Part shown: positions 357 to 17,570 of the stretch, piece by piece
Numbering within the stretch: position 1 is the stretch's first letter
Layout: each line of letters begins with the position of its first letter
Virus record (IMG/VR): IMGVR_UViG_3300045988_058210
Coordinates: 1 to 17,570 of that record
DNA: 17,570 nt
Reading direction: 5' to 3' (one strand)
Source: a virus
The notes under the pieces: model-generated
Databases searched by the model: none
What the model saw: only the letters and a program-made list of their open reading frames with translations
What the model was told of the DNA's origin: nothing
Translations under genes and position numbers: made by a program

Positions 357-373
357 CAACCGAAACGGAAACT

Positions 374-393
374 CACTTTAGTCTGCTAAAGTG
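374..393. other. Hairpin cactttag-tctg-ctaaagtg (8-bp stem); a related copy sits at 830-845, just outside the ITR
   Basis: Read directly. The motif aactcactttagtNNgctaaag occurs at 370-391 and again at 824-845 (ctttag-ttcg-ctaaag). Confidence 0.5.
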
Positions 394-410
394 TCCGCGG
401 GTGACGGACA

Positions 411-622: not shown

Positions 623-687
623 TTCGCGCGCCCTCCGGGTGACGGACACGGCGCGTCCTTTCCGTCCGCGCCTGCCCGTTCGGGGTC

Positions 688-702
688 GTCCGCTGCGCGG
701 AC
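688..702. promoter_or_regulatory. Palindrome GTCCGC-tgc-GCGGAC
   Basis: Read directly: gtccgctgcgcggac. Confidence 0.5.
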
Positions 703-925
703 TGCCAGTCATATCCTATGAGTCATGTTAGTTATCGCTTGTGATCGTGCGGTTGTCCGCCGATGACCGCCGGAGGCTGTAGCGCTTCGCGCGCCCTCCG
801 GGTGACGGACACTTCGGAAAGGCAACTCACTTTAGTTCGCTAAAGACGCACCTTTTACACATATATTACTTTGATAAACAAACTTTAACATATTAAATTG
901 CAGATGTGTTGTCGGTTACAAAATT

Positions 926-964
926 GCAGACATTCAGACCATGATAAAAGTGTTGAATGTCTGC
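926..964. terminator. Bidirectional terminator-like hairpin downstream of the last late gene
   Basis: The stem is gcagacattca (926-936) pairing with tgaatgtctgc (954-964), 11 bp, with a 17-nt loop. It is followed by atttatttt on the plus strand and by aattttgt on the minus strand, and lies 9 nt past the stop of the 973..2976 gene. Confidence 0.55.
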
Positions 965-972
965 ATTTATTT

Positions 973-2976: not shown

Positions 2977-2988
2977 TATTATCCCTCC

Positions 2989-3747
2989 TTAATAAAATTG
3001 ATAGAATAACTCTCTGCAATCATCGCAAATACGCTTGTTAAGATTAAGTATGGTATCTCGGAATCTCTGAATTTCTATAGAGTAACTACCGTCGAATCCC
3101 TCATCTTCAATTGTATCATTATTATCTGCATGATACGTGTCATTACTGTTGGTTTTTGTGGTATTCTCTCCATTGCTGACCGCACTGTTATGGATGGTAT
3201 TCTGTCCCCGATCCATCGTAGACGCATAATTCGTTCCGGCAAAATTAATCTGCGGGTTGTCTGAATGAATGTTCTGTGTGTCGTTATTTGTATCAGTTGA
3301 CGTTGTGTTTTTTGCCGTGCTGTCACCGGAGATCACACCTGTTCGTGTATCGTCTTTTGTACTCGTTACTTTTCGTGTACTCTTATGAGTAATCAGCGGG
3401 TTGTATTCAAAAGTAATACTCCGGTACAACTGCTCATAGTATGGCATATTGAGTGTGAGAATCTTTTTTAGATGATATTGAAATTCTCCGACAGTTTCCA
3501 ACCCGATCTGTTCTCGAAAATACTGTAAACAGAACGATTTTTCGAACGCAAGTTTTGCGGTTTCATATTCGGGAGCGGAAGCATCGACATAAAACGGAAA
3601 GTCAAAATTGAAGATGAAAGGAACGGCGGCTTCGATCATCTGATCAATGGTCTGATTTTCAAGTGGTGAAAGTACATGATCGGAAATGACCAACTGCTCA
3701 ATGGTATTCGTCAATGTTTTCGTTTCGTAGTTATAACTAAGAAACAT
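2989..3747 (-). CDS. Lower collar protein (phi29 gp11-like)
   Basis: This 252-aa ORF lies immediately downstream of the portal gene with a TAATG stop/start overlap at 3745-3749. It has the segment YFREQIGLETVGEF typical of lower-collar proteins as I recall them, and an Asn/Thr/Ser-rich central region. Confidence 0.6.
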   Translation of the reverse strand: MFLSYNYETKTLTNTIEQLVISDHVLSPLENQTIDQMIEAAVPFIFNFDFPFYVDASAPEYETAKLAFEKSFCLQYFREQIGLETVGEFQYHLKKILTLNMPYYEQLYRSITFEYNPLITHKSTRKVTSTKDDTRTGVISGDSTAKNTTSTDTNNDTQNIHSDNPQINFAGTNYASTMDRGQNTIHNSAVSNGENTTKTNSNDTYHADNNDTIEDEGFDGSYSIEIQRFRDTILNLNKRICDDCRELFYQFY

Positions 3748-4706
3748 TATTCCACCTCGCTTTCCGGCGTGTTGTTTCCGTTGTTTTCCGGTGTGTCGTT
3801 TTCGTCATTTGTTGTGTTGAAAACATCCGGTCGGTTAATCGGTGTTACCATCTTAGAATTAAAACGTACATGGATATTCAATCCATATCGTTCATTGATA
3901 GCGTCCAATCCTCTTTGAATGGTAGCCAGATTTCCGTTTCTTGTCAACTCGATCTCTCCATCGTTGTAACTCGTTTCCGCGGAAACCAGCCGTTCCGGTT
4001 TTTCTACGCCGCTTGCTTCGATACCGAGATCAGCTAGACATTCTGCTACTTCTCTCTGTGCGGCGGTGTCAAGTTCGTTAAAAATTGGCTGTATTTTCAA
4101 ATCAATGGTATCAATTTGAATCTGTTTTCGCAGATCGTTTTTTGCTTTGATAAACGGAATATTTTTTACCCACTTCTGAATAAAGTTGTCAATGGATAAC
4201 TTCTGCGTAGAATCCCCGCTGATAACAACTGGCGTTCTCTGCTGAATGACGTTTACCCTTGTGGACGCTTTTTTCTCCGCTAGACTCTGCGAATGCAGAA
4301 TAATACTGAGAATTTCCGGTACGGCAAAAGGTCTGGCAAAAATCAACGAACTTTCGTTTTTGTCCGTCTGCTCATAATACTGACCATTCATAGCGTAGGC
4401 AATCCAATCGGTAGGAATTCCGTAAATATCGGGTTCGCCAACCAGATTAACACCGAAAACGCCGAATAGTCCGGTGATTGGTTCTTTTTTGAACAGGCAC
4501 ATTCCCTGCCATAATAGATAGGAGTTGAGCATCCGCGGCGGAATCTCATCCGGTAAACCGTCATACTCATACCGCGATAATGCCAGATTGACAAACTTGT
4601 CAAAAAAGTGCCGGAAATACATTTTTTCTTCCGGTGACGTATTCGGCTTGCTTTCCCAGTGTCCCCACACTTCCTTGTTACTCACCCGATACGGGTTATC
4701 ATACAT
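3747..4706 (-). CDS. Portal / upper collar connector protein (phi29 gp10-like)
   Basis: This 319-aa ORF has the SD AAGGAGGTG. Several segments align with phi29 gp10 as remembered: KPERLVSAETSYNDGEIELT versus [20 protein letters not shown], and INERYGLNIHVRFN versus INELYGLNVKVKFR. Its size is similar to gp10 (309 aa). Confidence 0.9.
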   Translation of the reverse strand: MYDNPYRVSNKEVWGHWESKPNTSPEEKMYFRHFFDKFVNLALSRYEYDGLPDEIPPRMLNSYLLWQGMCLFKKEPITGLFGVFGVNLVGEPDIYGIPTDWIAYAMNGQYYEQTDKNESSLIFARPFAVPEILSIILHSQSLAEKKASTRVNVIQQRTPVVISGDSTQKLSIDNFIQKWVKNIPFIKAKNDLRKQIQIDTIDLKIQPIFNELDTAAQREVAECLADLGIEASGVEKPERLVSAETSYNDGEIELTRNGNLATIQRGLDAINERYGLNIHVRFNSKMVTPINRPDVFNTTNDENDTPENNGNNTPESEVE

Positions 4707-4718
4707 GACATCACCTCC

Positions 4719-6296
4719 TTAATTATTGGAAAGACCATAGTTTCCAACGTCATCCGTGTGCCAGAACGTAACGCCTCGGTTAAACATTGCCTGCAAAAAA
4801 TTGATATCATCGGTAACACACGACCCATGCAGGCTGCAATTAACCGTTTTGACAAAATTCCAGTTTGACCGCCCGGTAATATTAGGTACTTTAATTTTGT
4901 GCGTTGCATATCCGTACATGGTAAAAAAATCGTCGATCGTTTTCGCCATCTGAGCGGTTACACTCATCACATGACAGTAAACTTGACTGCCGAACAATGC
5001 GGTGGCAACATAACTTCCAGATGAATTACCTTTTGCTGTCGGTGGAATCAAATCATGACTTTCTTTTTGTGCGTTAATGTTTTCGTTCAGTAGATATGTT
5101 CCTGTTGCCGCGGTATAAATGCTTTCAACGCCAGCAGCTAAATTTCCGCTTAATGCTCCTACTAATCCTCCGGCTAAATTTCCAATCTGCGATATTGCAT
5201 TCTGCTTTTTGGAGTAGTCCCATAACGGACTAGACTGCGCTAGAAAAGCCTGATAGCCGTCATTTGTCCAGGCACACTGTGGGAAATTATTGATGATAAA
5301 ACCGTATGGGGATTTTGACCCACCATTACGTTTATATTCACGCGGAGCCACAAAGATTGCAGGAATATTAAACATAACGCCATACACCTGCATGGTTAAT
5401 GCTCCATTTTTACCGTATTCGAAATTAAAAGTATGCTGTATTCCCGAACCATCGTTGACCAGACAATAACAATAGGGATACTGATATAGTTTATTATTTT
5501 TCGGGAGATAGCCGTCAAGTGCATCTGGTTTAACGGTTACTTGTGTATAAGCAGATGTATCTGTCTGGAAACAAGCTTCTGGTGCTTGATATACATTAAC
5601 AATCGCATCTCCGTTTCCGCTTTTGACGTACTTCTGGATAACTGTGATTAAGTCCGTATATTTTGTTTTCCGAGTAAATGTCAACCCCGATAAAATTCCC
5701 TGATTGACAATGGGTATAATATTTGTTCCGTTTTCGTCTGCACTTGCACTCAAACAATACTGCATCGGACCGAGATTCAAAAGTCTCTGTTCGCTCGGAT
5801 TGTCCACGTATTCCCCCGTTTCCAGATTTTCTGGCACTAAATTAATTCCGGCATAATCAGCTTTTTTGTCAATATGTTCCCTTTCCACATAGCACGGTTG
5901 AAGTACCACATCGTAAAAACTGTTCTGAAAACGATCGGGTTCGAAATAAATCTTGAAACTTCCGTCACTCAACCATTCTACGCGCGTCACAAAACCGAAA
6001 TACCATTCTTCCGTATAGGGGTTGTTCTGAAAAGCAAGATAATTGCATTTCAGAAATTCACTCTCATTCCCTTTTCCTTTATAAGTCAGTTCTCCCCATC
6101 TCACGGGCGCGGATTGCTTAAAAATATGGATTGCTTTTTCTCTTACGTGCGCCAGACAGCCAGCTTTTCCGTCGTTATAATATCTTACGTGTTCGTAATC
6201 ATTTCCCCATTCGATACCACTAGCCAAAATAACCGTGGTCTGCGGGGAAACCGCCGCCACATCTTCCTGTGGCGGCATCGGAATGAAATTATCCAT
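4719..6296 (-). CDS. Tail knob / distal tube protein (phi29 gp9-like)
   Basis: This 525-aa ORF has the SD GAGGGTGG. ILASGIEWGNDYEHVRYY and NYLAFQNNPYTEEWYFGFVTRVEW...IYFEPDRFQN parallel phi29 gp9 ILADVPFSNDYKNTRWF and SYIMFQNADYGNKWFYAFVTELEF...VHFEIDVLQT. It sits between the capsid and portal genes. Confidence 0.88.
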   Translation of the reverse strand: MDNFIPMPPQEDVAAVSPQTTVILASGIEWGNDYEHVRYYNDGKAGCLAHVREKAIHIFKQSAPVRWGELTYKGKGNESEFLKCNYLAFQNNPYTEEWYFGFVTRVEWLSDGSFKIYFEPDRFQNSFYDVVLQPCYVEREHIDKKADYAGINLVPENLETGEYVDNPSEQRLLNLGPMQYCLSASADENGTNIIPIVNQGILSGLTFTRKTKYTDLITVIQKYVKSGNGDAIVNVYQAPEACFQTDTSAYTQVTVKPDALDGYLPKNNKLYQYPYCYCLVNDGSGIQHTFNFEYGKNGALTMQVYGVMFNIPAIFVAPREYKRNGGSKSPYGFIINNFPQCAWTNDGYQAFLAQSSPLWDYSKKQNAISQIGNLAGGLVGALSGNLAAGVESIYTAATGTYLLNENINAQKESHDLIPPTAKGNSSGSYVATALFGSQVYCHVMSVTAQMAKTIDDFFTMYGYATHKIKVPNITGRSNWNFVKTVNCSLHGSCVTDDINFLQAMFNRGVTFWHTDDVGNYGLSNN

Positions 6297-6312
6297 GTTT
6301 CCACCCTCTTAC

Positions 6313-7623
6313 TTAATCGGTCGTAAAGTGAATGTTTGCCGTTATGGAAGATTTGTACCGACTGGTAATCACAACTTTCACGCTTGTTTCTGCGTTTGCT
6401 TTCTGTTTAAGATTCTTCTCATCTTTTGCGATTCGAAGAATGGTTGTTCCCGGGATGACAAACGTATCAGCGGAAGAGTTACCCACTACTTTTACATCGA
6501 CTGCTTTATCGGCTACTCCACTTGACTCAACAGAAAAATTTCCGCCAAAGTCAACATCTGTTCCGGCTTTCACCAGTCCCACGTTATGTGCGGTAATGGA
6601 AGAAACAAGAACCGGCTCGGTCGTAAACACGATGATCGGATAAAACAGGGAATAAGAGAACATCTCTTTTACTGTATACGTACTGTTCCAACGCAGTCCG
6701 CGATTAACGTTATCCTGTACCATCATGCGATACTGTTCGCGGATTTTGAAGAACCGCTTGTCAACCAATACTGCTACAATACTCTCAGCATCGTTAAAGT
6801 TATCAATTAACACCTGCTGTGCTTTCGGAATCATCCGATCTAAATTGTAAGCACTTGCGTAGCTGTCAACATTCATAGCCGCTTTGGTGTCAGGGTCGAC
6901 AAACAAAAGAATGGTATCTTCTTTTGCCGCCGATGTCGCGCCAGCGAAATTATACAGCGGGTTCGGGAACTGAATCTTGTCGATGTAACTCTGAATCTGT
7001 TTTGCAAGTGCGTTCGCGGATGCCTGATTCGTAACCGCCTCCACATGAACCGGGTAAATCTGACCAGCGCGCTTTGCGGATGCGATCAACTCTTTCGCTG
7101 TCGTAAATTCATCCCAATTGCAAGCGGAAACGACACTTTCCACTTTTGCCTGCACGAGACTGCGCAAACCGTAATCATCGAGAAACGCGCCGCGCATATC
7201 CTCAAACCAGATCGTCACCGGATAATCGTTATTAAAATTGATTACATGATACAGCGCCATAATGTAGCTGTCATAAATGGCGGTCGCATCTTCGATGCTG
7301 ATATTGGCATCGTGCGCGTAACCCTGTGCAAAATTTACGTAGACTTCCTGTTCTCCGTTTCCATACGGCATGGCGTTACTGTTCAGTACACGCAGAGGAT
7401 TTCGGAACGCTTCGGTACTGATGGATTGACTGGCAATCAGATTTACCAGCGCAGGAACCAGTTCGTTCCGCGCCATCGGATTGTAAGGGTCGGTTAATGT
7501 TTTTGCAATATCGGCAATATTTTCACGAGTTGCTACCGGAACTCTGTCACGGTAGTCAACACTCATCGTCTGCCGAACGGCGTTCAGCATATTAATATTT
7601 GTCATATCTAATTTTTCTGCCAT
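6313..7623 (-). CDS. Major capsid protein (phi29 gp8-like) with a C-terminal Ig-like domain
   Basis: This 436-aa ORF has the SD AAGGAGAG. NMLNAVRQTMSVDYRDRVPVATRENIADI parallels gp8 [29 protein letters not shown], and AVLVDKRFFKI...RGLRWN parallels AVLVDKDWFMV...RGLYWN. The C-terminal roughly 90 aa is beta-rich (VDVKVVGNSSADTFVIPG..), like the BIG2 domain of gp8. Confidence 0.9.
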   Translation of the reverse strand: MAEKLDMTNINMLNAVRQTMSVDYRDRVPVATRENIADIAKTLTDPYNPMARNELVPALVNLIASQSISTEAFRNPLRVLNSNAMPYGNGEQEVYVNFAQGYAHDANISIEDATAIYDSYIMALYHVINFNNDYPVTIWFEDMRGAFLDDYGLRSLVQAKVESVVSACNWDEFTTAKELIASAKRAGQIYPVHVEAVTNQASANALAKQIQSYIDKIQFPNPLYNFAGATSAAKEDTILLFVDPDTKAAMNVDSYASAYNLDRMIPKAQQVLIDNFNDAESIVAVLVDKRFFKIREQYRMMVQDNVNRGLRWNSTYTVKEMFSYSLFYPIIVFTTEPVLVSSITAHNVGLVKAGTDVDFGGNFSVESSGVADKAVDVKVVGNSSADTFVIPGTTILRIAKDEKNLKQKANAETSVKVVITSRYKSSITANIHFTTD

Positions 7624-7627
7624 TGTT

Positions 7628-7972
7628 TCACTCTCCTTTTCCGCTCAGAATGAGCTGAGACATATCAAGATCGTTGATACTTGTTGCGGTTTCTTCCGAT
7701 TCCGGCGCGTTTCCGCCAAACTCGGTTACTTTTGTGATACTTCCGCCGTGGGTAAGATCAGACCAGCGGCTTTTGATTTCTGCCACCGCGGAATCATACT
7801 TTCCTTTCAGTTCGTCCCGTTCTGCGACCAGCGCGTCACGTTCGGACATCAGTGCGCCGATGTCGGTATCTTCTGTTTTGATTTTTTCGCTGATGGCGGC
7901 GATTGCGTCACCGTGCGTTTCGATGTTTCCAATGTCGGCTACGATTTCCGACCAATACTCTTCAAGTGTCAT
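7628..7972 (-). CDS. Scaffolding protein (phi29 gp7-like by position and composition)
   Basis: This 114-aa ORF is acidic and has heptad-like coiled-coil text (ALMSERDALVAERDELKGKYDSAVAEIKSRW). It lies directly upstream of the capsid gene, with the SD AGGAGG 6 nt from its ATG. Confidence 0.55.
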   Translation of the reverse strand: MTLEEYWSEIVADIGNIETHGDAIAAISEKIKTEDTDIGALMSERDALVAERDELKGKYDSAVAEIKSRWSDLTHGGSITKVTEFGGNAPESEETATSINDLDMSQLILSGKGE

Positions 7973-7973
7973 G

Positions 7974-9026
7974 TTAAAACCTCCTTTTTAAATTGGGATA
8001 TAACCAGATTGGCATTTTATGCCGTTTTGGTTTCGTTGGGTGAGGCGGCTCGGGGGGTTCGGGTTGTCCAGGTGACAAATACCGAAATACCATGACCGCG
8101 TTATTCAAACGTTCGGAATCAGATAAATACCGATTCCCAACAAGCCATCCGGTAATTGCAGAATCTTTTGCGTGTTCGGAAATAAAATTGAAACATTCAT
8201 GTGATTTTTCCTGCCGGAACGCAAGTGTTCCATCGTCACTGATTCCCTCCCACCCTTTCATGTAAGCGGCAGTCAGTGCGTTAAGATCGGTACTGTCACT
8301 ATGTAAAAACGCTTGCAGATTTTCGTAAGCACTTGCCGCGCCTACAGAATACCATACATTCTCGTAGATCAAATACTCTAACTGTGCGTTTCCATCGTCC
8401 CGGCTGTACCCGTTCGCGTCCAGCCAATGAAATAACTGTGTGCGGCGGTTGGTGTCGGCGTTATCTGTCCATTGACCCAATCCATAGCCGGGCGCTCCTA
8501 CAATCGTACCTTGCCACAACCCAGGGTTTACGGTTGACTCCTGCCAGAAATTGCCACAGATGGAGGCAATCACATACTGGCTGATATCGCTTTCTACCGC
8601 AACCGGATACCGATAAAGATACGTCCAGGAGCTATAGGGAGACACAAACGTATTGATGGATACCTGTCTGTCCAGCGGGTAACTATCGGTATGCGCTCCC
8701 ATCGTATACCCTCCGCCGTCTGCCTGATCATACACCATTTCGGTATGACCGGAACGCCATAAGATATCACCTTTCTTCCATGGCTGATTGGCTGTACCTT
8801 TTTGAAATCCTGCACCGATCAGATACCCATCCATGCTCCGAGTGGTAAACCATGGGTTAGATGCTAAAAACCCGCCGACCGTACAACAATAACTCATGAG
8901 GGACGAACAATCATAGTACGTAATACCTCCTACGGTCTGACCCTCACGATACGTTTGGGAATATCCAACGTTTGGATTGTTACAAATCTCGATACAGGTA
9001 TTGTACGCAAGTGTCAGATCAGCCAC
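7974..9026 (-). CDS. Tail-associated peptidoglycan hydrolase: N-terminal NlpC/P60-CHAP-like cysteine peptidase plus C-terminal phage tail lysozyme domain (functional analogue of phi29 gp13)
   Basis: This 350-aa ORF starts at GTG (9024-9026), preceded by GAGGGG. Cys and His motifs are YYDCSSLM and SGHTEMVY. The C-terminal half has the GNFWQESTVNP ... GYGLGQWT pattern I associate with the phage tail lysozyme family. Its start overlaps the endolysin stop (GTGGCTGA). Confidence 0.72.
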   Translation of the reverse strand: MADLTLAYNTCIEICNNPNVGYSQTYREGQTVGGITYYDCSSLMSYCCTVGGFLASNPWFTTRSMDGYLIGAGFQKGTANQPWKKGDILWRSGHTEMVYDQADGGGYTMGAHTDSYPLDRQVSINTFVSPYSSWTYLYRYPVAVESDISQYVIASICGNFWQESTVNPGLWQGTIVGAPGYGLGQWTDNADTNRRTQLFHWLDANGYSRDDGNAQLEYLIYENVWYSVGAASAYENLQAFLHSDSTDLNALTAAYMKGWEGISDDGTLAFRQEKSHECFNFISEHAKDSAITGWLVGNRYLSDSERLNNAVMVFRYLSPGQPEPPEPPHPTKPKRHKMPIWLYPNLKRRF

Positions 9027-9723
9027 GGGTCAACCCCTCTTTTGCGACGTAACCAGTATAGACGATTCTATTGACAACCGCTTTTACAAGATACCACTCA
9101 TTTGTATAATACCCGTAGTTTCTAACACTGGTTCCGGTTGGCAACGTCAAGATGACAGTTTTATTCATTCCCGCGCCAACACGCAGATGATAGCGATCAT
9201 TGGTATGATACGCTCCTGCAATTTTCCGGTCAAAACTACGCGCGGATTCTGTTTTGATTGAACTTTCCATGACGTTATTCGGCTTTTCGTCGACGGCTCC
9301 TGCATACCGATAGTGAACGGTATTTTCATACGGAAGATCGTAATAAGACCGTACACAGATTTCTTTTCCGGTCTGATCTCCCGTCTGACCATCAATCCCG
9401 CCGTTTTCCGACTGGCTGGCGTGGACGATGCGGTTCGCGTCAACCGACATCGTTACATGATGACCAGCCGCAAGGTGGATATCCCCGCGTCTCCACGGTT
9501 TACCGCATTTCACAAAACCAGCGTTTTCCAACTGTTCACCTAGATTTCTAGTTGTGCTGTAAATGCTGACCGGAAAACCAGCATTTGCAAGTGCAGTCCC
9601 GACAAAAGAGGAGCAGTCATAATCGGGACTGTTCCGGTGTACCTGTGAGTACCCGTGCCGATCATCGGCGGCGATTTGTTCCGCCCATGCAACTGCTTTT
9701 TCGATTTTATTCATTCTTTCCAC
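9019..9723 (-). CDS. Endolysin: NlpC/P60-CHAP-like cysteine peptidase plus C-terminal SH3b-like cell-wall-binding domain
   Basis: This 234-aa ORF has the SD AGGAGGTGG. Catalytic-type motifs are DYDCSSFVG and AAGHHVTM. The C-terminus (YHLRVGAGMNKTVILTLPTGTSVRNYGYYTNEWYLVK) looks like a bacterial SH3 domain. It lies immediately after a holin-like gene. Confidence 0.78.
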   Translation of the reverse strand: MERMNKIEKAVAWAEQIAADDRHGYSQVHRNSPDYDCSSFVGTALANAGFPVSIYSTTRNLGEQLENAGFVKCGKPWRRGDIHLAAGHHVTMSVDANRIVHASQSENGGIDGQTGDQTGKEICVRSYYDLPYENTVHYRYAGAVDEKPNNVMESSIKTESARSFDRKIAGAYHTNDRYHLRVGAGMNKTVILTLPTGTSVRNYGYYTNEWYLVKAVVNRIVYTGYVAKEGLTRG

Positions 9724-9904
9724 CTCCTAAGTGCTGGCAAAGTGAATTAATTGCAGTCGTGTTCGCTTCTACGCTTTTCCGCAGTTCTTCCATTTCTGCC
9801 TTGTGTGCGTCTTTTTCTTTCACCAGATACCAGAAAAGTGCGCCGCAACAAACAATTGGAAAACCGAGACTTCCAACTAACTGCGTTACCATAGTTACAT
9901 CCAT
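9707..9904 (-). CDS. Holin-like membrane protein (BhlA/UviB-like architecture)
   Basis: This 65-aa ORF has the SD GGAGGT 6 nt upstream. It has a single N-terminal hydrophobic helix (LVGSLGFPIVCCGALFWYLV) followed by a charged coiled segment. It overlaps the endolysin start by 17 nt. Confidence 0.62.
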   Translation of the reverse strand: MDVTMVTQLVGSLGFPIVCCGALFWYLVKEKDAHKAEMEELRKSVEANTTAINSLCQHLGGGKNE

Positions 9905-10185
9905 GTTTCTACCTCCTTATCCTGCCATTTTAACCAGTCCTCAATTTCACTTAATTTATCACACATAATAAAATTATGAATGAAGCGGACAGGCGATTTA
10001 CTGTTATACGCGTTGCCATCCATAAAAAAGAAATCCCACAAATACCGAATGTGAGTCTCATAATTTTCATGTGGGACAATGATTAACGTGTCTTTTTCGT
10101 CCCCTTTATAGCGTACCGTATAAGCAAGATAAGCATTTTCTTTTTTCATCATGCTGACAATCATATTAAAAACGATATTTGCCAT
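9895..10185 (-). CDS. Hypothetical protein (96 aa), first gene after the internal promoter and structured leader
   Basis: The ORF has the SD AGGAG 5 nt upstream of its ATG and overlaps the holin start by 10 nt. I recognise no motifs. Confidence 0.6.
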   Translation of the reverse strand: MANIVFNMIVSMMKKENAYLAYTVRYKGDEKDTLIIVPHENYETHIRYLWDFFFMDGNAYNSKSPVRFIHNFIMCDKLSEIEDWLKWQDKEVETWM

Positions 10186-10200
10186 CTTTGCTCCTTTCTT

Positions 10201-10291
10201 CCCGTCCTTTGAAAAACAAGGAAACCTTTTGACCTGCCAGGACGGGGCGGTTTACTCAACCGTGGCAACCCCTCTAAAAAGGTTTCCCTAT
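10201..10291 (-). ncRNA. Structured RNA element (pseudoknot-capable, terminator-like closing stem); candidate small ncRNA (pRNA-like) or transcription attenuator
   Basis: Minus-strand RNA features, given in plus-strand coordinates. P1 is an 11-bp stem, GGAAACCUUUU (10287-10277) pairing with AAAAGGUUUCC (10230-10220), followed by UUGUUUUU (10219-10212). P2a is GGGG (10272-10269) with CCCC (10247-10244). P2b is CGGUU (10262-10258) with AACCG (10252-10248), loop GAGUA. The 6-nt bulge UUGCCA (10268-10263) is complementary to UGGCAG (10239-10234). An alternative helix pairs CCCGUCC (10246-10240) with GGACGGG (10207-10201), just upstream of the SD. Confidence 0.45.
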
Positions 10292-10297
10292 ATTTTC

Positions 10298-10326
10298 ATA
10301 ATACAGCTTTTCTGTCCGTTTGTCAA
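10298..10326 (-). promoter_or_regulatory. Near-consensus sigma-A/sigma-70 promoter (TTGACA-17-TATTAT)
   Basis: On the minus strand, TTGACA (10326-10321) is followed by the 17-nt spacer aacggacagaaaagctg and then TATTAT (10303-10298). It lies in the 165-bp gap between the ATPase gene and the 96-aa gene. Confidence 0.7.
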
Positions 10327-10334
10327 GTACAGTT

Positions 10335-10351
10335 GTCCGTCTCTTACGGAC
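10335..10351. promoter_or_regulatory. Palindrome GTCCGT-N5-ACGGAC, 8 bp upstream of the -35 box; an extra GTCCGT half-site lies in the spacer (10314-10319)
   Basis: Read directly: gtccgtctcttacggac. It has the same arm sequence and spacing as the ITR terminal palindromes at 10-26 and 41-57, and it overlaps the ATPase stop codon. Confidence 0.5.
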
Positions 10352-11490
10352 TATTTATAAAGATCAATCCCCAGCAACTCAACCGCCATATTTTTACTGT
10401 CAAGATCATCAAAACGCAAGTATGCTTTTTGGTACGCTTCAACTAACCTTACAAACAAGTAATCATAATGATCGAGCATAACCGTGTTTTGTGTGTGATC
10501 ACCGTCACGGAAAACAGCAACATAAGTGCAAGACGGGTTACACTTATGCGTGATATAAATATACCCATCTTCATAATAATCATATACCCCATACCTTTTC
10601 CCACTATGCTGAATCGTGAACAGATACCGCGACCGTCCGGTCGGCTTCTGCACAAACACGGCATCATCAATCAACATCTGATCTCCCACGCTCATGCTCT
10701 GCATGTAGTGACCGCCGCGGAACGCTTTCAAAGCGGTGTTCTCCCACATGGCTTTACTTGCACTATCGTTGTGCGTAAACTCACACACAAAACCAGTTCC
10801 ATGCAGCATTTTGGTTTCTTTCTGATACCGCTTGTGGATGCCGAAAAAAACAAAATGGGGATTGAGCAACGAAATATTATTGGATGCCATCACCAGTTTA
10901 AACCATCGGGACTGGCTTCCATTTCCACGACTGATCGTCAATAACAACGATTGCAGTTTTTCGGGTTCCCCTTTTACGTATTGCCCGCTTTCCATGCTAA
11001 ACTCATCAAAAAACAAAAAGTAGATATCCCGAAAATACGGTGACAGCTTTTTTACACTGTCCATCTTACTTCCAAAACTAAACGCGCATCCGAACGGCTC
11101 ACCATCCAAAAAGTACCGGACGACATTTCCGTTTTTGTCAAGATTTTTATAAGTAATCACACTTCCTAATTTTGGATACATTCTTAGCATATCTTCATAC
11201 ATTGCCGCCGCTCCCGTCATCTCCCCTTTTGTCCGAAAAATCCATCCCGTCTGCAATCCGTACTCTTTACACAAGATACAGCTTGCCGCGGCAAACGCAC
11301 TTGTCTTTCCAGCACTACGGTTGGAACACGTAATTGCTACGCCAGCGAAATCACCGTCTACGTCCGGCTCGGTAAATAACCGAATCGGATTGTAGTACTG
11401 AATCGTATTGCCTTTATCGTCTGCCGATTCAAATTTCACATCATAATCAGCGAAAAGTTTTTCCCAATTGATATCATTCCAAAAAATCAT
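10351..11490 (-). CDS. DNA packaging (encapsidation) ATPase, phi29 gp16-like
   Basis: This 379-aa ORF has Walker A CSNRSAGKTS (compare gp16 GARGIGKS) and Walker B IYFLFFDEFS (compare gp16 TIVFDEFI). The ATG has no adjacent SD; see the finding on the palindrome and mini-ORF at 11491-11530. Confidence 0.85.
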   Translation of the reverse strand: MIFWNDINWEKLFADYDVKFESADDKGNTIQYYNPIRLFTEPDVDGDFAGVAITCSNRSAGKTSAFAAASCILCKEYGLQTGWIFRTKGEMTGAAAMYEDMLRMYPKLGSVITYKNLDKNGNVVRYFLDGEPFGCAFSFGSKMDSVKKLSPYFRDIYFLFFDEFSMESGQYVKGEPEKLQSLLLTISRGNGSQSRWFKLVMASNNISLLNPHFVFFGIHKRYQKETKMLHGTGFVCEFTHNDSASKAMWENTALKAFRGGHYMQSMSVGDQMLIDDAVFVQKPTGRSRYLFTIQHSGKRYGVYDYYEDGYIYITHKCNPSCTYVAVFRDGDHTQNTVMLDHYDYLFVRLVEAYQKAYLRFDDLDSKNMAVELLGIDLYK

Positions 11491-11518
11491 TGTTTCACGT
11501 GAAACATTTTTGTTTCAC
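11491..11518. promoter_or_regulatory. 16-bp perfect palindrome TGTTTCACGTGAAACA plus a third half-site (TGTTTCAC), abutting the ATPase start codon
   Basis: Read directly: tgtttcacgtgaaaca (11491-11506), tttt, tgtttcac (11511-11518). The SD-like AAAGGAGG lies at 11520-11527 (minus sense). The identical 16-mer recurs at 14873-14888. Confidence 0.55.
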
Positions 11519-11540
11519 GGCCTCCTTTCTATCATTTCCC

Positions 11541-11612
11541 GCTCCGCGTCACCGCCAGTTCCCCGCCAGTCGCTCCGCAGTCAATCTCACGTTAATCGCA
11601 CGATATCGCACG
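11541..11612. repeat. Cluster of short direct repeats in the early/late intergenic region
   Basis: GCTCCGC(G/A)GTC occurs at 11541-11550 and 11572-11582. CCGCCAGT occurs at 11552-11559 and 11563-11570. ATC(T/G)CACG occurs at 11584, 11595 and 11605, spaced 11 and 10 bp apart. Confidence 0.7.
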
Positions 11613-11656
11613 TTTTGCTGCAGATGGACGCAGAGGCGGCAGAGCTCGCTGGGTAT

Positions 11657-11690
11657 CAAAAAGAGCTACGCTGGAAAACGTAGCTCTCTC
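11657..11690 (-). terminator. Rho-independent terminator ending the early/replication transcription unit
   Basis: The minus-strand RNA reads AGAGCUACG-UUUUCCAG-CGUAGCUCU followed by UUUUUGAU. The stem pairs 11679-11687 with 11662-11670 (9 bp). It lies 110 nt downstream of the 11801..12220 gene. Confidence 0.85.
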
Positions 11691-11800
11691 ACACGTATGG
11701 AGTTTTTTCAAACACAAGATATCGTAACAATCAACTACAGGTAACTTATCATACTCTTTGGTACCGTCCACCAGTCGGCGCGCGTATTGCGTTCATGTAT

Positions 11801-12220
11801 TTAAGCGAACGGGTTGAATTTTGCCAGCTCGCCGAACTTATGGACGTTTACGGCGGAAAGGAAGGCCGTGAATCCCTTTTCGCGGCGGAACTTGCTTTCG
11901 CCGATCGAGAGGAAGAGGTCAACAACTGCGCCTTTGCCGAGTTCGGCAACACTAGAAACGGTGTCGCTCTCGAATCCGTCCTCATAAAAGGCAACGCGGT
12001 AATTTGTCTGCGCTTTTACGTAGATACCATATTCGTCACTTTCTTTCGCCGGAATCCACTTTGCTTCTGCGGCGGCATCCTCACCAAACTCTTCGATAAT
12101 TTTTTCGAAGATGGCTTTCTGCTGGTCTTCTGTGATCAAAGCAGAAATAACGCTTTTGCCGTCCTCTTCCTTTGCATATTTTACAGTTACGTTGTTCAGT
12201 TTCATTTTTGCTTTACTCAT
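11801..12220 (-). CDS. Putative ssDNA-binding protein (T7 gp2.5 / DUF2815-like architecture)
   Basis: This 139-aa ORF has the SD AAGGAGAG. The N-terminal KLNNVTVKYAKEE and the C-terminal GKGAVVDLFLSIGESKFRREKGFTAFLSAVNVHKFGE resemble the OB-fold pattern of DUF2815/gp2.5-like phage SSBs as I recall it. It sits in the replication module. Confidence 0.45.
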   Translation of the reverse strand: MSKAKMKLNNVTVKYAKEEDGKSVISALITEDQQKAIFEKIIEEFGEDAAAEAKWIPAKESDEYGIYVKAQTNYRVAFYEDGFESDTVSSVAELGKGAVVDLFLSIGESKFRREKGFTAFLSAVNVHKFGELAKFNPFA

Positions 12221-12326
12221 GATTTTCTCTCCTTTTGCTTAAGTTGTTTCCTATGCAGAACCGCGGCGATTTGCTTTGATCGTTTCCGTCTTATCTGGTC
12301 ACTTCCAGACCGCGGTTGTGCGCTGA

Positions 12327-12563
12327 TTAGTCGTCCAGTCTCTTTGCTTCTGCAAAGAACTGTTCGTCAGGCATCTCGTAGCGGGCGGATACGGTATCGG
12401 TTAATACACAGATGAAATCCTCCGGAAAACCAGCGGCGGCAACAGCGGCGGTTTTTGCTTTCTGCGATTTCAGTTCTTCTGTATTACTAAAAGCGCCGAC
12501 CACCTGTTTTGTGTTTCTGTCAATGACAGAGTAGATAAAATTTTCGATTTTTGTTCTAACCAT
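12327..12563 (-). CDS. Hypothetical protein (78 aa)
   Basis: I trimmed the ORF-track call 12327..12638 to the internal ATG at 12561-12563. That ATG is preceded by GGAGA with 7-nt spacing, and the longer version would begin inside the promoter. Confidence 0.6.
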   Translation of the reverse strand: MVRTKIENFIYSVIDRNTKQVVGAFSNTEELKSQKAKTAAVAAAGFPEDFICVLTDTVSARYEMPDEQFFAEAKRLDD

Positions 12564-12609
12564 ACTTTTTTCTCCTTTCGTTATATTGGTATTTGTTCTT
12601 ACAAGTATT

Positions 12610-12638
12610 ATAATAGCATGTCCGACCAAAAAAGTCAA
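12610..12638 (-). promoter_or_regulatory. Near-consensus sigma-A/sigma-70 promoter (TTGACT-17-TATTAT, with TG at the extended -10 position)
   Basis: On the minus strand, TTGACT (12638-12633) is followed by the 17-nt spacer tttttggtcggacatgc and then TATTAT (12615-12610). It lies in the AT-rich gap after the DNA polymerase gene. Confidence 0.65.
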
Positions 12639-12772
12639 TAGTTAAAATAAGAAAATAAAGAAAATATCCAAAAATAAAAGCAGGATGGAAAGGTCGAGTT
12701 CTTCCTCATGTAACGCCCAGATCGTTGATAATACCAAAAACATAAAAAACACAAAATATCCCATATCGTCTC

Positions 12773-14932
12773 CTATTCCGGTAACACTCCGTCTTGAGAG
12801 TTTACCAATACTTCATAGTATTCATTCGATACACCTAAGGTATAAGTGGTATCAAGGATTCCAATGTTACTAGCTGTTAAAATTTCTTCCCCGTTTACTT
12901 TGATGTAATGGGGTTTCGAGTTGTTAAAGCAACTGATTGTCCGGCCGACATTTTCCATCCGGCGGCAGAGACGGAAATTATTGCAGCACTTTAAGTTTTC
13001 CGCTCCCAGTTTCTTATTCATGCCAGCGACCGTAGACGTAAAACGCACGGGGTCTTTGCCAGATTGCGCCGCTTTTTCGTCCCATTCCACGCTGCAGTAT
13101 TTTTTCGCGCCGAGTGTTTTAAACTGGATATACAGATCATCCAGTTCCCAGACGCCGAGAATGTAACGGTTGTCACCAACGTCACAAAACGCCGGAATGT
13201 CATTTTCAATTGCACGTTTTGCCAGTATTTTATTTTTGGCGTCAAATTCCGGAATGTGTGCTTCCGGATGCAGAAATTTGATGCTGTCGGTATCACAGTA
13301 CACAACATCCATTCCCACCACGTCCAGCATATCTTGTAACTGCTTTCTTGCATGGGCGGTAACGTAGATTCCCCATTGATAGTGCAAAAAACTATTCTTT
13401 CCCGCGTAGTACGTTTTCAGTGCTTTTTCCGCATCTGCTTTTTCCCGATGCCATTCACCCGTAAAAGCATCCATCGCCCATTCGTCCTGTAAAAGATCTG
13501 TCACACACATTCCGAACGTGCTGTTTAACTTATTCTTAGACTTCATGTACTCGTAGACTTTATCGGGGTTTCCTTTCAACTGGCTTTTTGCGATAAAAAA
13601 TGACATCATCGTTTTACGCATACTTTCCGGTAACTTTCCGCGCGCGGCTACGTAGCACTCCGAGACGGTAAAAAAGTCGTAGTCGTACTGGTTTCTTATG
13701 ATTGCTAAGTCAATTTCCGTCATTGCTATTTCGCAGCAAGCAATAGACAATACGCGTCCATTATCAATCACACAATCTTTCCCGTGCTTCTGACACTTTG
13801 ACAGCGGGATATACGGGACGGGGATATTTTCTTTCATACGCAAGTTGTCAAATTGTACCCGCATGATAACACAACGTGTAGCACACAAGTTGTCAAACTG
13901 TCCCTGCGTTTTGATCTCAACCGCCCGAAACGCACTCATGGGATAATACTTACTTGCGATCTGCGCCGGATAACTACTCGAAATATCCATACTTCCCATA
14001 ACGATCACAGATTCACCTTTTTTCGCTGTGATCGTGTGCCCCGCGTGAATGCGGTTGGCGTGGGTATTGCCGCCACGGAACGCGTCTTTGCAAAGCTGGT
14101 ACTGCGGTAACGTCAAAGCCAGATCGGCAAATACTCCCGGATAATAACCGCTATCTGCCTGCATGGCGCGGCGAAATTCGCGGCGGACGTAGCCAGTTGA
14201 GGTAAGGGGGATTTCTGCAAGGTTGTCATCTTTTCGTAAGGCGCGGATGCATTCGCACAATCCACGAACGTCATTGTAGCAATATCCCTGTTCAACGTCC
14301 GTTAAAGGTGTTTTTGGTGTACGTAGTTTTTTATAGTCATACGTATCAACCAGTTTATAGTGGGTCACGCCCGCACTGTTCTCACAAAATTTTGAAAGAC
14401 TCATGTTGCTTAAAAAATACGAGCATCGAAACTCAATCCCGTATTTATACGCATAACATTTCATAACTTTATGTGCATCCCGCGCAAAGATTTCATCAAA
14501 TTCTATGAAATCTTTCATGAATTGAAATTCATAGGAAAGATTATGAACGTAGACGACAGCGCGTTTCGTATCAGATGTTTTCAAATACAAATGTACACCC
14601 TCACAAAAACGAATAAACTCGTTCCATGTTCGTCCGAAACAGACGGTATCTTTTAAACAGAACTGCCAGTGATACATGAAAGCATCACCTTTTACTACTT
14701 TTTCCCCTGTTTTATGATAGCGTTTATAATCTAATTTTTCCAGTGTGGTTGTCTCAATATCAAACGCCATTTCTACGTCATAATAAACGATAGGATTTTT
14801 CTTTCTTCCTCGTTTGCGGCATTCGCGCAACGTCTGGTAATCGGAAAAAGGAAAATCATTGACCGAATAAATTGTTTCACGTGAAACATCTTCGTTTCCG
14901 TTCACGATAACAGGGACATCCAATTGATACAT
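12773..14932 (-). CDS. Protein-primed family-B DNA polymerase (phi29 gp2-like)
   Basis: This 719-aa ORF carries every expected motif: Exo I FDIETTT, Exo II VHNLSYEFQF, Exo III YCYNDVRGL, YxGG-like AFRGGNT, motif A MDISSSYPAQ, motif B KNKLNSTFGMC, motif C VYCDTDSIKF and KxY LGAKKYC. Confidence 0.97.
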   Translation of the reverse strand: MYQLDVPVIVNGNEDVSRETIYSVNDFPFSDYQTLRECRKRGRKKNPIVYYDVEMAFDIETTTLEKLDYKRYHKTGEKVVKGDAFMYHWQFCLKDTVCFGRTWNEFIRFCEGVHLYLKTSDTKRAVVYVHNLSYEFQFMKDFIEFDEIFARDAHKVMKCYAYKYGIEFRCSYFLSNMSLSKFCENSAGVTHYKLVDTYDYKKLRTPKTPLTDVEQGYCYNDVRGLCECIRALRKDDNLAEIPLTSTGYVRREFRRAMQADSGYYPGVFADLALTLPQYQLCKDAFRGGNTHANRIHAGHTITAKKGESVIVMGSMDISSSYPAQIASKYYPMSAFRAVEIKTQGQFDNLCATRCVIMRVQFDNLRMKENIPVPYIPLSKCQKHGKDCVIDNGRVLSIACCEIAMTEIDLAIIRNQYDYDFFTVSECYVAARGKLPESMRKTMMSFFIAKSQLKGNPDKVYEYMKSKNKLNSTFGMCVTDLLQDEWAMDAFTGEWHREKADAEKALKTYYAGKNSFLHYQWGIYVTAHARKQLQDMLDVVGMDVVYCDTDSIKFLHPEAHIPEFDAKNKILAKRAIENDIPAFCDVGDNRYILGVWELDDLYIQFKTLGAKKYCSVEWDEKAAQSGKDPVRFTSTVAGMNKKLGAENLKCCNNFRLCRRMENVGRTISCFNNSKPHYIKVNGEEILTASNIGILDTTYTLGVSNEYYEVLVNSQDGVLPE
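14873..14888. promoter_or_regulatory. Second copy of the 16-bp palindrome TGTTTCACGTGAAACA, inside the 5' end of the polymerase gene
   Basis: Read directly. It encodes residues VSRET, about 45 nt downstream of the polymerase ATG. Confidence 0.45.
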
Positions 14933-14942
14933 GGTTATTACC

Positions 14943-15521
14943 TCACTTTAATTTAGTTCTATTCTTATTAAAAAGTTCTTCCTCCGTAATATATCCATCA
15001 AGAAAGTCCTCATACTCTTCCAGAATATCTTCGAATTCAATTCCGCTATCATTTAATTTCGAAATAAAATCGTCAATGATCTGATCGGATTCCACCTGCT
15101 TTCGCAAATCCTTTTTGTAGATATTGGATGTTAGAAAACGATACAAGTCTTTATAGTTATCTTCTGTTACTTCTCCATTAATTTTATTCTTAGACTTGTC
15201 AAAACGTCTCTGCATTTCTGCAATCCGGTATCCCTCCAGTGTGGTTTCTGGAGAAGTCAAAAACGCAATCATGGTATCCCATTCCTGCCGGATGGATGCA
15301 TCCGAACGTTTCGTACCTTTCAAGAAACGATTTTTTTCTCGTCCTTGTGACGCGAAAAACTCCTTTACACGTCCGTATTCCCATTGGTCGCGTGCGTGTA
15401 CTTTTTCCAGTTTGGCAAGGCGGCTATTCGCCGCCGCCGCAACTTTAGGTAATTCGCGTTTGATCTGGTCAATGGATAAGTCAAGGTCTTGATAGATGCT
15501 ATAGTCTTTTGAGTTCGGCAC
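14943..15521 (-). CDS. Putative terminal protein (priming protein), assigned by position and composition
   Basis: This 192-aa ORF starts at GTG, preceded by AAGGGGG. It lies immediately upstream of the polymerase gene, as gene 3 precedes gene 2 in phi29. It is highly charged, with a basic N-terminal half (KVAAAANSRLAKLEKVHAR) and an acidic C-terminus (IEFEDILEEYEDFLDGYITEEE) carrying Ser/Tyr/Thr candidates. I cannot verify any sequence homology. Confidence 0.4.
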   Translation of the reverse strand: MPNSKDYSIYQDLDLSIDQIKRELPKVAAAANSRLAKLEKVHARDQWEYGRVKEFFASQGREKNRFLKGTKRSDASIRQEWDTMIAFLTSPETTLEGYRIAEMQRRFDKSKNKINGEVTEDNYKDLYRFLTSNIYKKDLRKQVESDQIIDDFISKLNDSGIEFEDILEEYEDFLDGYITEEELFNKNRTKLK

Positions 15522-15631
15522 TATTCACACCCCCTTATAAAGATTCGCAATTTATCAGAAATAATCTCGAAACCTATTACTTCTATGCGAACATAGCCGC
15601 AATACAATTTTATAAAATCTACTACTCTCAC
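15521..15631 (-). CDS. Micro-ORF (36 aa, VRVVDFIKLYCGYVRIEVIGFEIISDKLRIFIRGCE), absent from the ORF track
   Basis: I translated this by hand. It starts at GTG (15629-15631), 7 nt after a strong SD, TAAGGAGGT, which overlaps the stop of the upstream gene. Its TAG stop (15521-15523) overlaps the GTG start of the next gene by 1 nt. It fills an otherwise unexplained 122-bp gap. Confidence 0.45.
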   Translation of the reverse strand: MRVVDFIKLYCGYVRIEVIGFEIISDKLRIFIRGCE

Positions 15632-15643
15632 TGTGATACCTCC

Positions 15644-15994
15644 TTAATACAAGCAATCTTCATTTGCTCCATCTGTAGAATACAGAGGGCACATAGTACA
15701 GTTGTCGTTTGCAGAACAAATAACACGGTGAGAAACTTCTACATAGTACGCTTTTAAAGCGTAACGTGTAGAAATTTTGTTATGCAAGTTTACGGTAAAA
15801 CCTACGCCAAAATTACCTTTGTAGGGCAACGGATTACATAACGCACTCACCTTTACGTAGCCATTCGTAAGAGACGCGTGATCATATGCGTAAATATGTA
15901 CTTCTCCATCAGTATCTTCTGATTTCACATATAACGGAATATCCTCCATTCTAGCCGGAATGCTAGACAATTTATCGATAGGTAATGCTTGCAT
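15644..15994 (-). CDS. Hypothetical early protein (116 aa), Cys-containing C-terminus
   Basis: The ORF has the SD AAGGAGA 6 nt upstream of its ATG. I recognise no motifs. The C-terminus reads CSANDNCTMCPLYSTDGANEDC. Confidence 0.6.
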   Translation of the reverse strand: MQALPIDKLSSIPARMEDIPLYVKSEDTDGEVHIYAYDHASLTNGYVKVSALCNPLPYKGNFGVGFTVNLHNKISTRYALKAYYVEVSHRVICSANDNCTMCPLYSTDGANEDCLY

Positions 15995-16005
15995 GTTTTT
16001 TCTCC

Positions 16006-16398
16006 TTATCTTTTTTCATAATAGCCATATAATGACTTGTATCCACTATCCCAGGTATCGTAGTAGTTGCCGTCGACTACAGCAACAACGTGATTCGCTA
16101 CTTTAAGTAGGTAGGCACCTTTTTTATGCTCGGTAGCAAAACCCGCAACCGTAGGACGTTTAGAGCCTTTTTTATTGCTAATGCCGTAGTATGTAAATCC
16201 CAACTTGTCTAATATATCGCGCTCTGTCTTAAGATCGACATTAAAGATGTTAGGCGTTTGATACTCGCGGCAATACGGGATAGTCAAGTCAAAAGTTTCT
16301 AGCCAACTAAGTCCGAAAACTTTACTCAACGCCCGTATCGTACAATCACCGTATTGATCTTTTAAATCTTTACCATTAGGCTGGTAGTATGTATACAT
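16006..16398 (-). CDS. Hypothetical early protein (130 aa) with a papain-fold-like Cys/His/Asp pattern
   Basis: I trimmed the ORF-track call 16006..16434 to the ATG at 16396-16398, which is preceded by GGAGAAAGGAGC. The ordered motifs QYGDCTIRAL, ANHVVAVVDG and YYDTWDSG resemble C39-like/papain-like cysteine peptidases. Confidence 0.55.
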   Translation of the reverse strand: MYTYYQPNGKDLKDQYGDCTIRALSKVFGLSWLETFDLTIPYCREYQTPNIFNVDLKTERDILDKLGFTYYGISNKKGSKRPTVAGFATEHKKGAYLLKVANHVVAVVDGNYYDTWDSGYKSLYGYYEKR

Positions 16399-16447
16399 GA
16401 ATGCTCCTTTCTCCCCGTCTTGCCGATAGGTCAACAGATGTTAAGTA

Positions 16448-16636
16448 TTAAATGGAACGGTACAGCGGCGATTCATGATATAACTCTCTAAAAAGATCGT
16501 CATATGTTACCCACTTAGTAAGTGCTTTTTCCGCTGGCATGCTCTTTTGTCCATATACATTTTCCATTATTTTGAGCATATCCCATGAATCATTGCATTT
16601 TTCATTTAATACGGTTTTAATTTCTTCTACTGTCAT
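16448..16636 (-). CDS. Hypothetical early protein (62 aa), first gene after the early promoter
   Basis: The ORF has the SD AGGAGG 8 nt upstream of its ATG. It is mildly acidic and I recognise no motifs. Confidence 0.6.
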   Translation of the reverse strand: MTVEEIKTVLNEKCNDSWDMLKIMENVYGQKSMPAEKALTKWVTYDDLFRELYHESPLYRSI

Positions 16637-16684
16637 TTAATTTTCCTCCTTTTTATATTATTGGTTTTCCTTGTTTCTGATATT

Positions 16685-16713
16685 ACAATACCACTTTTCT
16701 AGAAAAATGTCAA
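16685..16713 (-). promoter_or_regulatory. Early promoter (TTGACA-17-TATTGT, with TG at the extended -10 position), just inside the right ITR boundary
   Basis: On the minus strand, TTGACA (16713-16708) is followed by the 17-nt spacer tttttctagaaaagtgg and then TATTGT (16690-16685). It lies in the only unique non-coding stretch between ITR-R and the first gene. Confidence 0.65.
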
Positions 16714-16729
16714 TCCTTTTTCTAGAAAA
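16695..16729. promoter_or_regulatory. Twin 12-bp palindromes TTTTCTAGAAAA (16695-16706 and 16718-16729) bracketing the -35 box
   Basis: Read directly. One copy lies within the promoter spacer and one immediately upstream of the -35 box, with centres 23 bp apart. I saw no other copy in the window. Confidence 0.6.
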
Positions 16730-16754
16730 TATCATTACACACATATTCACACCG

Positions 16755-17570
16755 CGAAGTGTCCGTCACCCGGAGGGCGCGCGAAGCGCTACAGCCTCCG
16801 GCGGTCATCGGCGGACAACCGCACGATCACAAGCGATAACTAACATGACTCATAGGATATGACTGGCAGTCCGCGCAGCGGACGACCCCGAACGGGCAGG
16901 CGCGGACGGAAAGGACGCGCCGTGTCCGTCACCCGGAGGGCGCGCGAAGCACTTCCGCCTCCGGCGGTCACTGCCAGACATCCGAGCGTTACTGCACGAT
17001 TACTAAAGTTACACATAGATAACCGACGGCAGTCCGCGCCGCGGACGACCCCGAATGGGCAGGCGCGGCACTTCCGCCTCCGGCGGTCACTGGCAGACAT
17101 CCGAGCGTTACTGCACGATTACTAAAGTTACACATAGATAACCGACGGCAGTCCGCGCCGTGTCCGTCACCCGCGGACACTTTAGCAGACTAAAGTGAGT
17201 TTCCGTTTCGGTTGTGTCCGCGACCCGCGGACAAACGGTCGGTTTTGTCCACTTTTCGGGCAAAATGAGTAAGTATTTCGGAAGAATTGTGCGAGATTCG
17301 GGTGGAAAACGTGAATATTTGTGAAATTGTATAGACAATTAGGCTGGACTAACACTTTAGTCGGGTGAAGCGTTTTTGTCAAGTTGGAAAAATGCATAAA
17401 AATTTTCGGGCATATGTGTTGTAATAAGTATTAAAAGTAAACAAATGCAATGAAATAGTTTGCAAAAACGGTGTCTTTCTCACGCGGACACCGTTTCTTT
17501 TGTGCAATGTGCTGTCCGCCGTACGCGGACAAAATTGGGAAAATGTCCGCGTGGGACGGACTATATATAT
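16755..17570. repeat. Right inverted terminal repeat (ITR-R), 816 bp
   Basis: Reverse complement of 1-816, with coordinate x mapping to 17571-x. The mirrored ORFs 16840..17100, 16859..17125, 16989..17180, 17108..17338 and 17182..17397 translate identically to their left-end counterparts. Confidence 0.95.

Follow-up and report, generated by a model that had tools for sequence, protein, structure and literature searches.

The question raised by this locus is why a small phage should place a perfect 16-bp palindrome between the Shine-Dalgarno (SD) sequence and the start codon of its DNA packaging ATPase gene, and carry the same palindrome a second time within its DNA polymerase gene. The window, by which we mean the whole stretch of DNA analysed, comprises positions 1 to 17,570 of IMG/VR record IMGVR_UViG_3300045988_058210. 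An initial annotation of this stretch, made from the letters only, described the palindrome and offered three explanations: a hairpin in the ATPase leader, translational coupling through a mini-ORF, and an operator for a dimeric regulator. It did so without recognizing the motif as the bacterial centromere site parS, and this identity is the main point of the present analysis.

At 17,570 bp and bounded by perfect inverted terminal repeats of 816 bp, the window represents a complete viral genome, and its gene content is that of a phi29-like podovirus. All genes at issue here are carried on the minus strand, namely the gp16-type DNA packaging ATPase ORF (10351–11490, with its ATG at 11490; Pfam Podovirus_Gp16, E = 1e-24) and the protein-primed DNA polymerase (12773–14932, with its ATG at 14932; PHROG 1907, E = 3.5e-51), the latter preceded by an ordinary SD of its own, GTGAGG, 7 nt 5' of the ATG. 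The same strand encodes the Phi29_MCP major capsid protein (6313–7623) and, as further members of the phi29-type core, the gp9 tail knob, the connector and the tail lysozyme. A megablast search of the whole window against cultured phages returned zero matches, and the capsid protein is only 25–30% identical to those of cultured phages of Bacillus, Clostridium, Curtobacterium and Hungatella. An ENA scaffold encodes an identical ATPase, and the scaffold name points to a human-gut metagenome cohort; the host of the phage is presumably a Firmicute. No relative of the phage was present among 185,579 species genomes scanned, and there is thus no sign of plasmid-like carriage or of carriage in isolates. 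An Rfam scan of the entire window (E <= 1) returned nothing. A 206-aa plus-strand ORF (11795–12415) overlaps a 139-aa minus-strand ORF (11801–12220), and neither has a family match; the ENA annotation of the identical phage calls the minus-strand 139-aa ORF and a 78-aa ORF, which makes single-strand transcription of the whole genome probable.

Exact copies of TGTTTCACGTGAAACA are found at 11491–11506 (parS-1) and 14873–14888 (parS-2), the two positions at which the palindrome had been reported. Both match the chromosomal parS consensus TGTTNCACGTGAAACA at 16 of 16 positions. This consensus is bound by ParB/Spo0J in Firmicutes, Actinobacteria, Proteobacteria and others (PMC7022226). By sequence identity, the palindromes are certainly parS sites of the host type. 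The first lies in the ATPase leader and adjoins the ATG, while the second, described as beginning about 45 nt into the polymerase ORF, occupies nucleotides 45–60 of that ORF and thereby the last base of codon 15 and codons 16–20 (V S R E T). A third half-site was located at 11511–11518, as claimed, and the repeat turned out to be longer than first noted, since 26 of 28 nt are identical between 11489–11516 and 14871–14898. The remaining window contains no further site within 3 mismatches of TGTTTCACGTGAAACA, and two sites at this threshold arose in 2 of 200 dinucleotide shuffles. The chance of about 0.05 given in the initial annotation is fair for an arbitrary repeated 16-mer. It does not hold for TGTTTCACGTGAAACA, which is a known motif defined in advance and is expected only ~4e-6 times in 17.6 kb, so that chance is excluded; for two 16/16 matches to such a motif, the expectation falls to ~1e-11.

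Two other classes of element were considered for the palindrome and rejected. The consensus motifs of CcpA (cre), LacI-family regulators, Rex, CRP/FNR, LexA, TnrA and CodY each have the wrong half-site orientation or spacing. An intrinsic terminator, consisting of the palindrome and a T-run, would have a weak stem (−3.9 kcal/mol), and no plus-strand transcription unit ends at this position.

The exact 16-mer was found in at least 119 IMG/VR contigs, whereas a control, the reversed palindrome of equal composition, occurred in 2. The matches listed range in GC content from 27 to 72%, and many of them are multi-copy; this breadth across viral contigs points to a universal protein-binding site. 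No match to ParB_N was detected in the six frames of the window (E <= 10), and the small ORFs of the window gave no matches to DNA-binding families. ParB would therefore have to come from the host, and we consider it quite likely that the phage uses host ParB at its parS sites.

We then examined the distribution of parS among phi29-like phages. Run on phi29 (NC_011048) as a positive control, the parS scan recovered four 1-mismatch sites (TGTTTCACGTGGAACA) and one 3-mismatch site, several of which lie within coding DNA. Among the matches listed, 27 of the at least 119 contigs were phi29-like by tblastn (polymerase, ATPase or capsid at ~25–46% identity), 4 of these being close relatives from the window's own phage family. 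Many of the 27 carry 2–4 perfect parS copies whose positions are not homologous; some of these form tandem pairs, and some lie in both terminal repeats. In a sample blind to parS, consisting of 79 phi29-like loci picked via capsid homology, parS (<= 1 mismatch) was present in 18 loci, while the control palindrome occurred 0 times in ~990 kb. The Bacillus phi29-group genomes in this sample carry parS, as do 8 of 9 CH17P1-like contigs. By comparison, a gut clade of 38 IMG/VR contigs (L221–L258; ~13–14 kb, capsid ~40% identical to that of CH17P1) has parS in only 2 of its 38 members, with one 1-mismatch site each. Across the genomes compared, parS is a lineage-specific trait among phi29-like phages. 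Several arrangements were seen in individual contigs: four perfect parS in a tandem array of 55-bp period at the contig end of L208 (CH17P1-like; positions 6–186), perfect parS mirrored in both terminal repeats of L181 (132 and 11579 of 11725), and four copies each in L088, L102 and L187, including a tandem pair 34 bp apart.

The position of parS-1 raises the matter of how the ATPase is translated. In the mRNA sense, the leader reads AAAGGAGG-CC-GTGAAACA-AAAA-TGTTTCAC-GTGAAACA-ATG. By direct sequence reading, the SD AAAGGAGG lies at 11521–11528 on the minus strand and is conserved in relatives. The initial annotation had rightly pointed to this SD and to its distance, with GGAGG exactly 30 nt from ATG 11490, and had misplaced its coordinates by one base (11520–11527 in place of 11528–11521). 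Translation from a different, SD-proximal start, named in the initial annotation as one of the findings that would overturn its reading, was rejected: an in-frame TGA (11517–11515) stands upstream, and the first 60 codons contain no in-frame ATG. ATPase relatives all align from residue 1, codons 5, 7, 13 and 14 vary synonymously, and codons 1–40 evolve as coding sequence. The upstream in-frame stop, the lack of an ATG in 60 codons and the coding-type variation together establish ATG 11490 as the start.

Comparison with relatives revealed that the long spacer contains a 19–20-nt insert, AAAA + TGTTTCAC + GTGAAACA (11491–11510, minus strand), which is flanked by 8-bp direct repeats of GTGAAACA and is present in some relatives and absent from others. 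It is equivalent to the hairpin sequence GTGAAACA-AAAA-TGTTTCAC of the initial annotation. Ten of 81 relatives are free of the insert, and their leader reads AGGAGG-NN-GTGAAACA-ATG with a normal SD spacing of 10 nt. On the ATPase tree, the 10 insert-free tips require 9 changes of state, and well-supported branches force at least 7 of these; one sister pair shares the insert-free state. The pattern is one of recurrent recent loss of the insert, for which slippage between the direct repeats is a plausible route, or of exchange by recombination, and not of one old event.

A lone parS half-site, GTGAAACA at 7624–7631 (minus strand), forms the SD–ATG spacer of the major capsid gene. The start region of that gene (7621–7631, minus strand) reads GGAGA-GTGAAACA-ATG, and its spacer plus start, GTGAAACAATG, is the same as in the ATPase start region; a full parS at the capsid start is absent in all relatives examined. 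The polymerase parS has the flanks GAAAC...GAAACAAT. The shared GTGAAACAATG spacer and these polymerase flanks make it plausible that the leader parS originated when a short patch of the polymerase site was copied into a half-site spacer that was already there. Farther 5' of the ATPase SD, the region 11531–11580 (minus strand) contains direct repeats in mirror order, GCGGAGCG, ACTGGCGG, ACTGGCGG, GCGGAGCG. This region is strongly variable among relatives, yet GCGGAGCGGG-like units are retained in it; no convincing −35/−10 pair was found in 11531–11580.

To follow the two sites through evolution, 80 relatives with ATPase identity of 88–97% were retrieved. A search for the motif in related genomes had been proposed in the initial annotation, and it indicated that parS is kept in most relatives, with at least one site retained in 69 of the 71 in which both regions are covered. 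Among these close relatives, parS (<= 2 mismatches) is confined to the two positions, bar one 2-mismatch site elsewhere in one relative. Of 65 insert-bearing relatives, 60 preserve the leader site exactly and 5 carry it with 1 mismatch, whereas the DNA upstream of the ATPase SD is near-saturated with changes. The polymerase site is bimodal, with 0–2 mismatches in 50 unique sequences and 7–9 in a clade whose N-terminal segment has been replaced. Within the 50 unique sequences, codons 16–20 show 0.2 synonymous variants per codon versus 9.7 outside, and third-position entropy is 0.03 versus 0.77, the lowest among 71 five-codon windows. These near-invariant codons sit in the N-terminus, the most variable part of the polymerase examined. 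Conservation at the nucleotide level thus exceeds what coding or chance would produce, and the parS sequences are kept for their own sake. Seven unique relatives have another polymerase N-terminal segment (…NGTETTAIETVY…) that is free of parS (region window 14860–14932), and this alternative segment indicates mosaic exchange within the first ~25 codons.

Retention of the two sites is not coupled. Both regions are covered in 71 genomes; the two sites occur together in 48 of these, the leader site alone in 10, the polymerase site alone in 11 and neither in 2, so that presence at one position is independent of presence at the other (Fisher OR 0.87, p = 1). This independence argues against an obligatory two-site regulatory circuit and fits redundant centromere sites. 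With 10 genomes of this family that have lost the leader site, 10 without the polymerase site, and a parS-poor sister clade of 38 contigs, the sites are also dispensable.

Folding of the leader mRNA predicted a 9-bp hairpin, CGUGAAACA-AAAA-UGUUUCACG (11498–11519, minus strand), in which the old spacer half-site pairs with the first half of parS-1. This hairpin is both the minimum-free-energy and the centroid structure (−10.9 kcal/mol, z = −3.4), whereas the parS palindrome folded on itself reaches only −3.9 kcal/mol. It leaves 1 + 7 = 8 unpaired nt between SD and AUG. Equivalent hairpins are predicted in 71 of 71 insert-bearing leaders (−7.1 to −12.6 kcal/mol), leaving 4–10 unpaired nt, mostly 6–10. 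The first mechanism proposed in the initial annotation, a hairpin like that of T4 gene 38 that loops out the surplus bases, is thereby strengthened: all 71 insert-bearing leaders fold, and natural variants lack exactly the hairpin's 19–20 nt and have a spacing of 10 nt. According to this model, the leader parS may have arisen as, or may persist as, a 20-nt insert between SD and AUG, the pre-existing spacer GTGAAACA being one half-site. The old spacer copy would pair with the first parS half over 9 bp and loop out the extra bases, with ~8 nt unpaired. With these bases looped out, the ATPase would still be translated, and its translation would depend on the hairpin. We judge it somewhat probable that the hairpin restores the SD–AUG distance. 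The geometry of the duplication produces the hairpin by itself, and conservation of the hairpin is inseparable from that of parS; with one arm dictated by parS and sequences that differ too little, covariation is not meaningful here.

An alternative route to ATPase translation, which we regard as unlikely, runs through the six-codon mini-ORF MFHVKQ* (11487–11507, minus strand; ATG TTT CAC GTG AAA CAA TGA), whose stop overlaps the ATPase start as ATGA. Ribosomes would start at the mini-ORF AUG, terminate at the UGA within AUGA and then initiate again at the ATPase AUG, with the hairpin being irrelevant or inhibitory and the DNA still being parS. The mini-ORF and the ATGA overlap exist in the window as the initial annotation described them and are intact in most insert-bearing relatives, and the mini-ORF AUG lies 13 nt past the SD, a spacing at the upper edge of the usable range in Firmicute start regions. 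Coupling of this kind is possible but is the weaker of the two translational proposals, as the upstream AUG is paired within the favoured stem, that of the −10.9 kcal/mol predicted hairpin. Moreover, the mini-ORF has been lost by small indels and substitutions in about 9 of 71 insert-bearing relatives in which the hairpin is kept, and insert-free relatives do without it altogether. Its presence shows no selection, because an A before parS and ATGA after it generate the mini-ORF automatically.

The remaining explanations deny that the palindromes serve as sites for ParB. One holds that they are operators of a phage-encoded or other non-ParB dimeric regulator co-regulating polymerase and ATPase at the early-to-late switch. 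A perfect palindrome of this size is typical of dimeric helix-turn-helix proteins, the early/late junction holds one of the copies, and several small phage ORFs have no assigned function; but the same 16-mer is the universal chromosomal parS and recurs in unrelated viral contigs across the GC range given above for the matches listed, relatives have or lack the one site with statistical independence from the other, and loss of either site is tolerated. Neither copy is at a promoter, one being 45 nt inside an ORF and the other after the SD. The initial annotation's third mechanism was therefore correct in kind, as these are DNA sites for a dimeric protein, and failed as to co-control, since the sites are gained and lost independently and no recognizable promoter accompanies them; we consider the operator explanation very improbable. 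Still more improbable is an element acting only as RNA (in mRNA stability, processing or translation control), or a neutral remnant of short-patch copying, with the match to parS coincidental. The 26 of 28 nt shared between the copies include flanks, as expected after ectopic copying, both copies are in the same reading register, and the leader hairpin is stable. Against this, the polymerase copy folds insignificantly (z = −0.55), yet its synonymous sites are frozen; the two full matches to a motif defined in advance have the minute chance expectation stated above (~1e-11); and other phi29-like lineages bear the motif at unrelated positions.

The reading that we prefer, in which the palindromes are host-type parS sites for host ParB and the hairpin in the leader copy keeps the ATPase translated, is probable when taken as a whole. 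We infer that after infection host ParB dimers would load at parS on the linear, terminal-protein-capped phage DNA, and that this loading would tie the phage DNA to the host origin-segregation machinery. The expected benefit would be segregation or entrapment: the phage DNA would be carried along at division, or into the forespore if the host sporulates, as experiments have demonstrated for phi29. More tentatively, the leader may be dual-coded, acting as a DNA centromere for carriage by host ParABS/SMC or for clostridial spore entrapment and, as RNA, bridging a split ribosome-binding site; it would be lost repeatedly by slippage between the 8-bp repeats and kept by selection, and ParB occupancy could tie the late genes to the cell-cycle or sporulation state. 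This fuller version is possible, although we hold it with much less confidence.

Borrowing of the host centromere is a documented route by which the "strictly lytic" phi29 hides in spores, and the same parS, in perfect form and conserved at synonymous sites, is now seen in an uncultured family of phi29-like phages from the human gut. The motif marks the Bacillus phi29 group, the Hungatella CH17P1 group and the window family and, apart from the two 1-mismatch sites described above, is absent from a large sister gut clade. The term parS does not occur in one recent review of phi29-like phages. It may provide a simple sequence marker for small gut podoviruses that could have a dormant or carrier lifestyle, and the dual-coded version, if true, would help explain the long-term persistence in the gut of "lytic" phi29-like phages. 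The leader copy also offers a clean natural experiment on split Shine-Dalgarno translation beyond T4, with close relatives that have and do not have the hairpin side by side.

For the translational part of the proposal, the closest known systems are T4 genes 38 and 25, in which, according to the experimental work as reviewed, a hairpin brings SDs lying 22 and 27 nt from the start codon to effective distances of 5 and 11 nt, respectively (Nivinskas et al. 1999; Malys and Nivinskas 2009; reviewed in PMC3014915). In these genes and in the ATPase of the window alike, the SD is too far from the start codon (22 and 27 nt; 30 nt here) and an intervening hairpin restores, or here is predicted to restore, a distance of 5–11 nt. 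The window leader has the hallmarks of a split SD, with a 30-nt spacer that contains no alternative start and a predicted hairpin that lies wholly between SD and AUG and brings the spacing into the 5–11-nt range. Unlike the T4 hairpins, the window hairpin would be a by-product of an inserted DNA protein-binding site, one arm being half of parS; hairpin-less variants of normal spacing coexist in the same phage family, and the host is presumably a Firmicute.

For the centromere part, the 16-bp sequence is identical to that of the chromosomal parS/ParB(Spo0J) centromere of Firmicutes and most bacteria. Chromosomal parS lies near oriC, whereas the window sites are on a phage genome of virulent type with no adjacent parAB operon. 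Phage phi29, as described in the articles that cite the original study, has five parS sites, host Spo0J segregates its genome into the prespore, and spore entrapment is Spo0J-dependent (Meijer et al. 2005, via PMC2731898 and PMC9437464). At 17243–17258 of phi29 (L203), a parS starts at the base right after the stop of gene 16 (packaging ATPase), and the window parS ends right before the ATPase start codon, a correspondence that may be coincidental. Both phages have a small terminal-protein genome with no par genes and several host-type parS, some in coding DNA, the combination on which phi29-type entrapment draws. The second component of that system, Spo0A boxes at the early and late promoters through which the lytic cycle is suspended, was not seen in the window: the exact motif TGTCGAA occurs 0 times versus 3.4 expected from shuffles, and the full phi29 entrapment circuit is for this reason not evident. 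The window phage further differs from phi29 in having two perfect-consensus sites where phi29 has five imperfect ones, in placing one of them between SD and AUG, and in belonging to a distant lineage from a human-gut metagenome (capsid ~25–30% identical to cultured phages). Hungatella phage CH17P1 and its IMG/VR relatives, which are likewise phi29-like phages of gut or sewage with a clostridial host, carry one perfect parS in a short intergenic leader, as the window phage does; in that group, the site is at another genomic position and is single, bar the four-copy tandem array of one relative.
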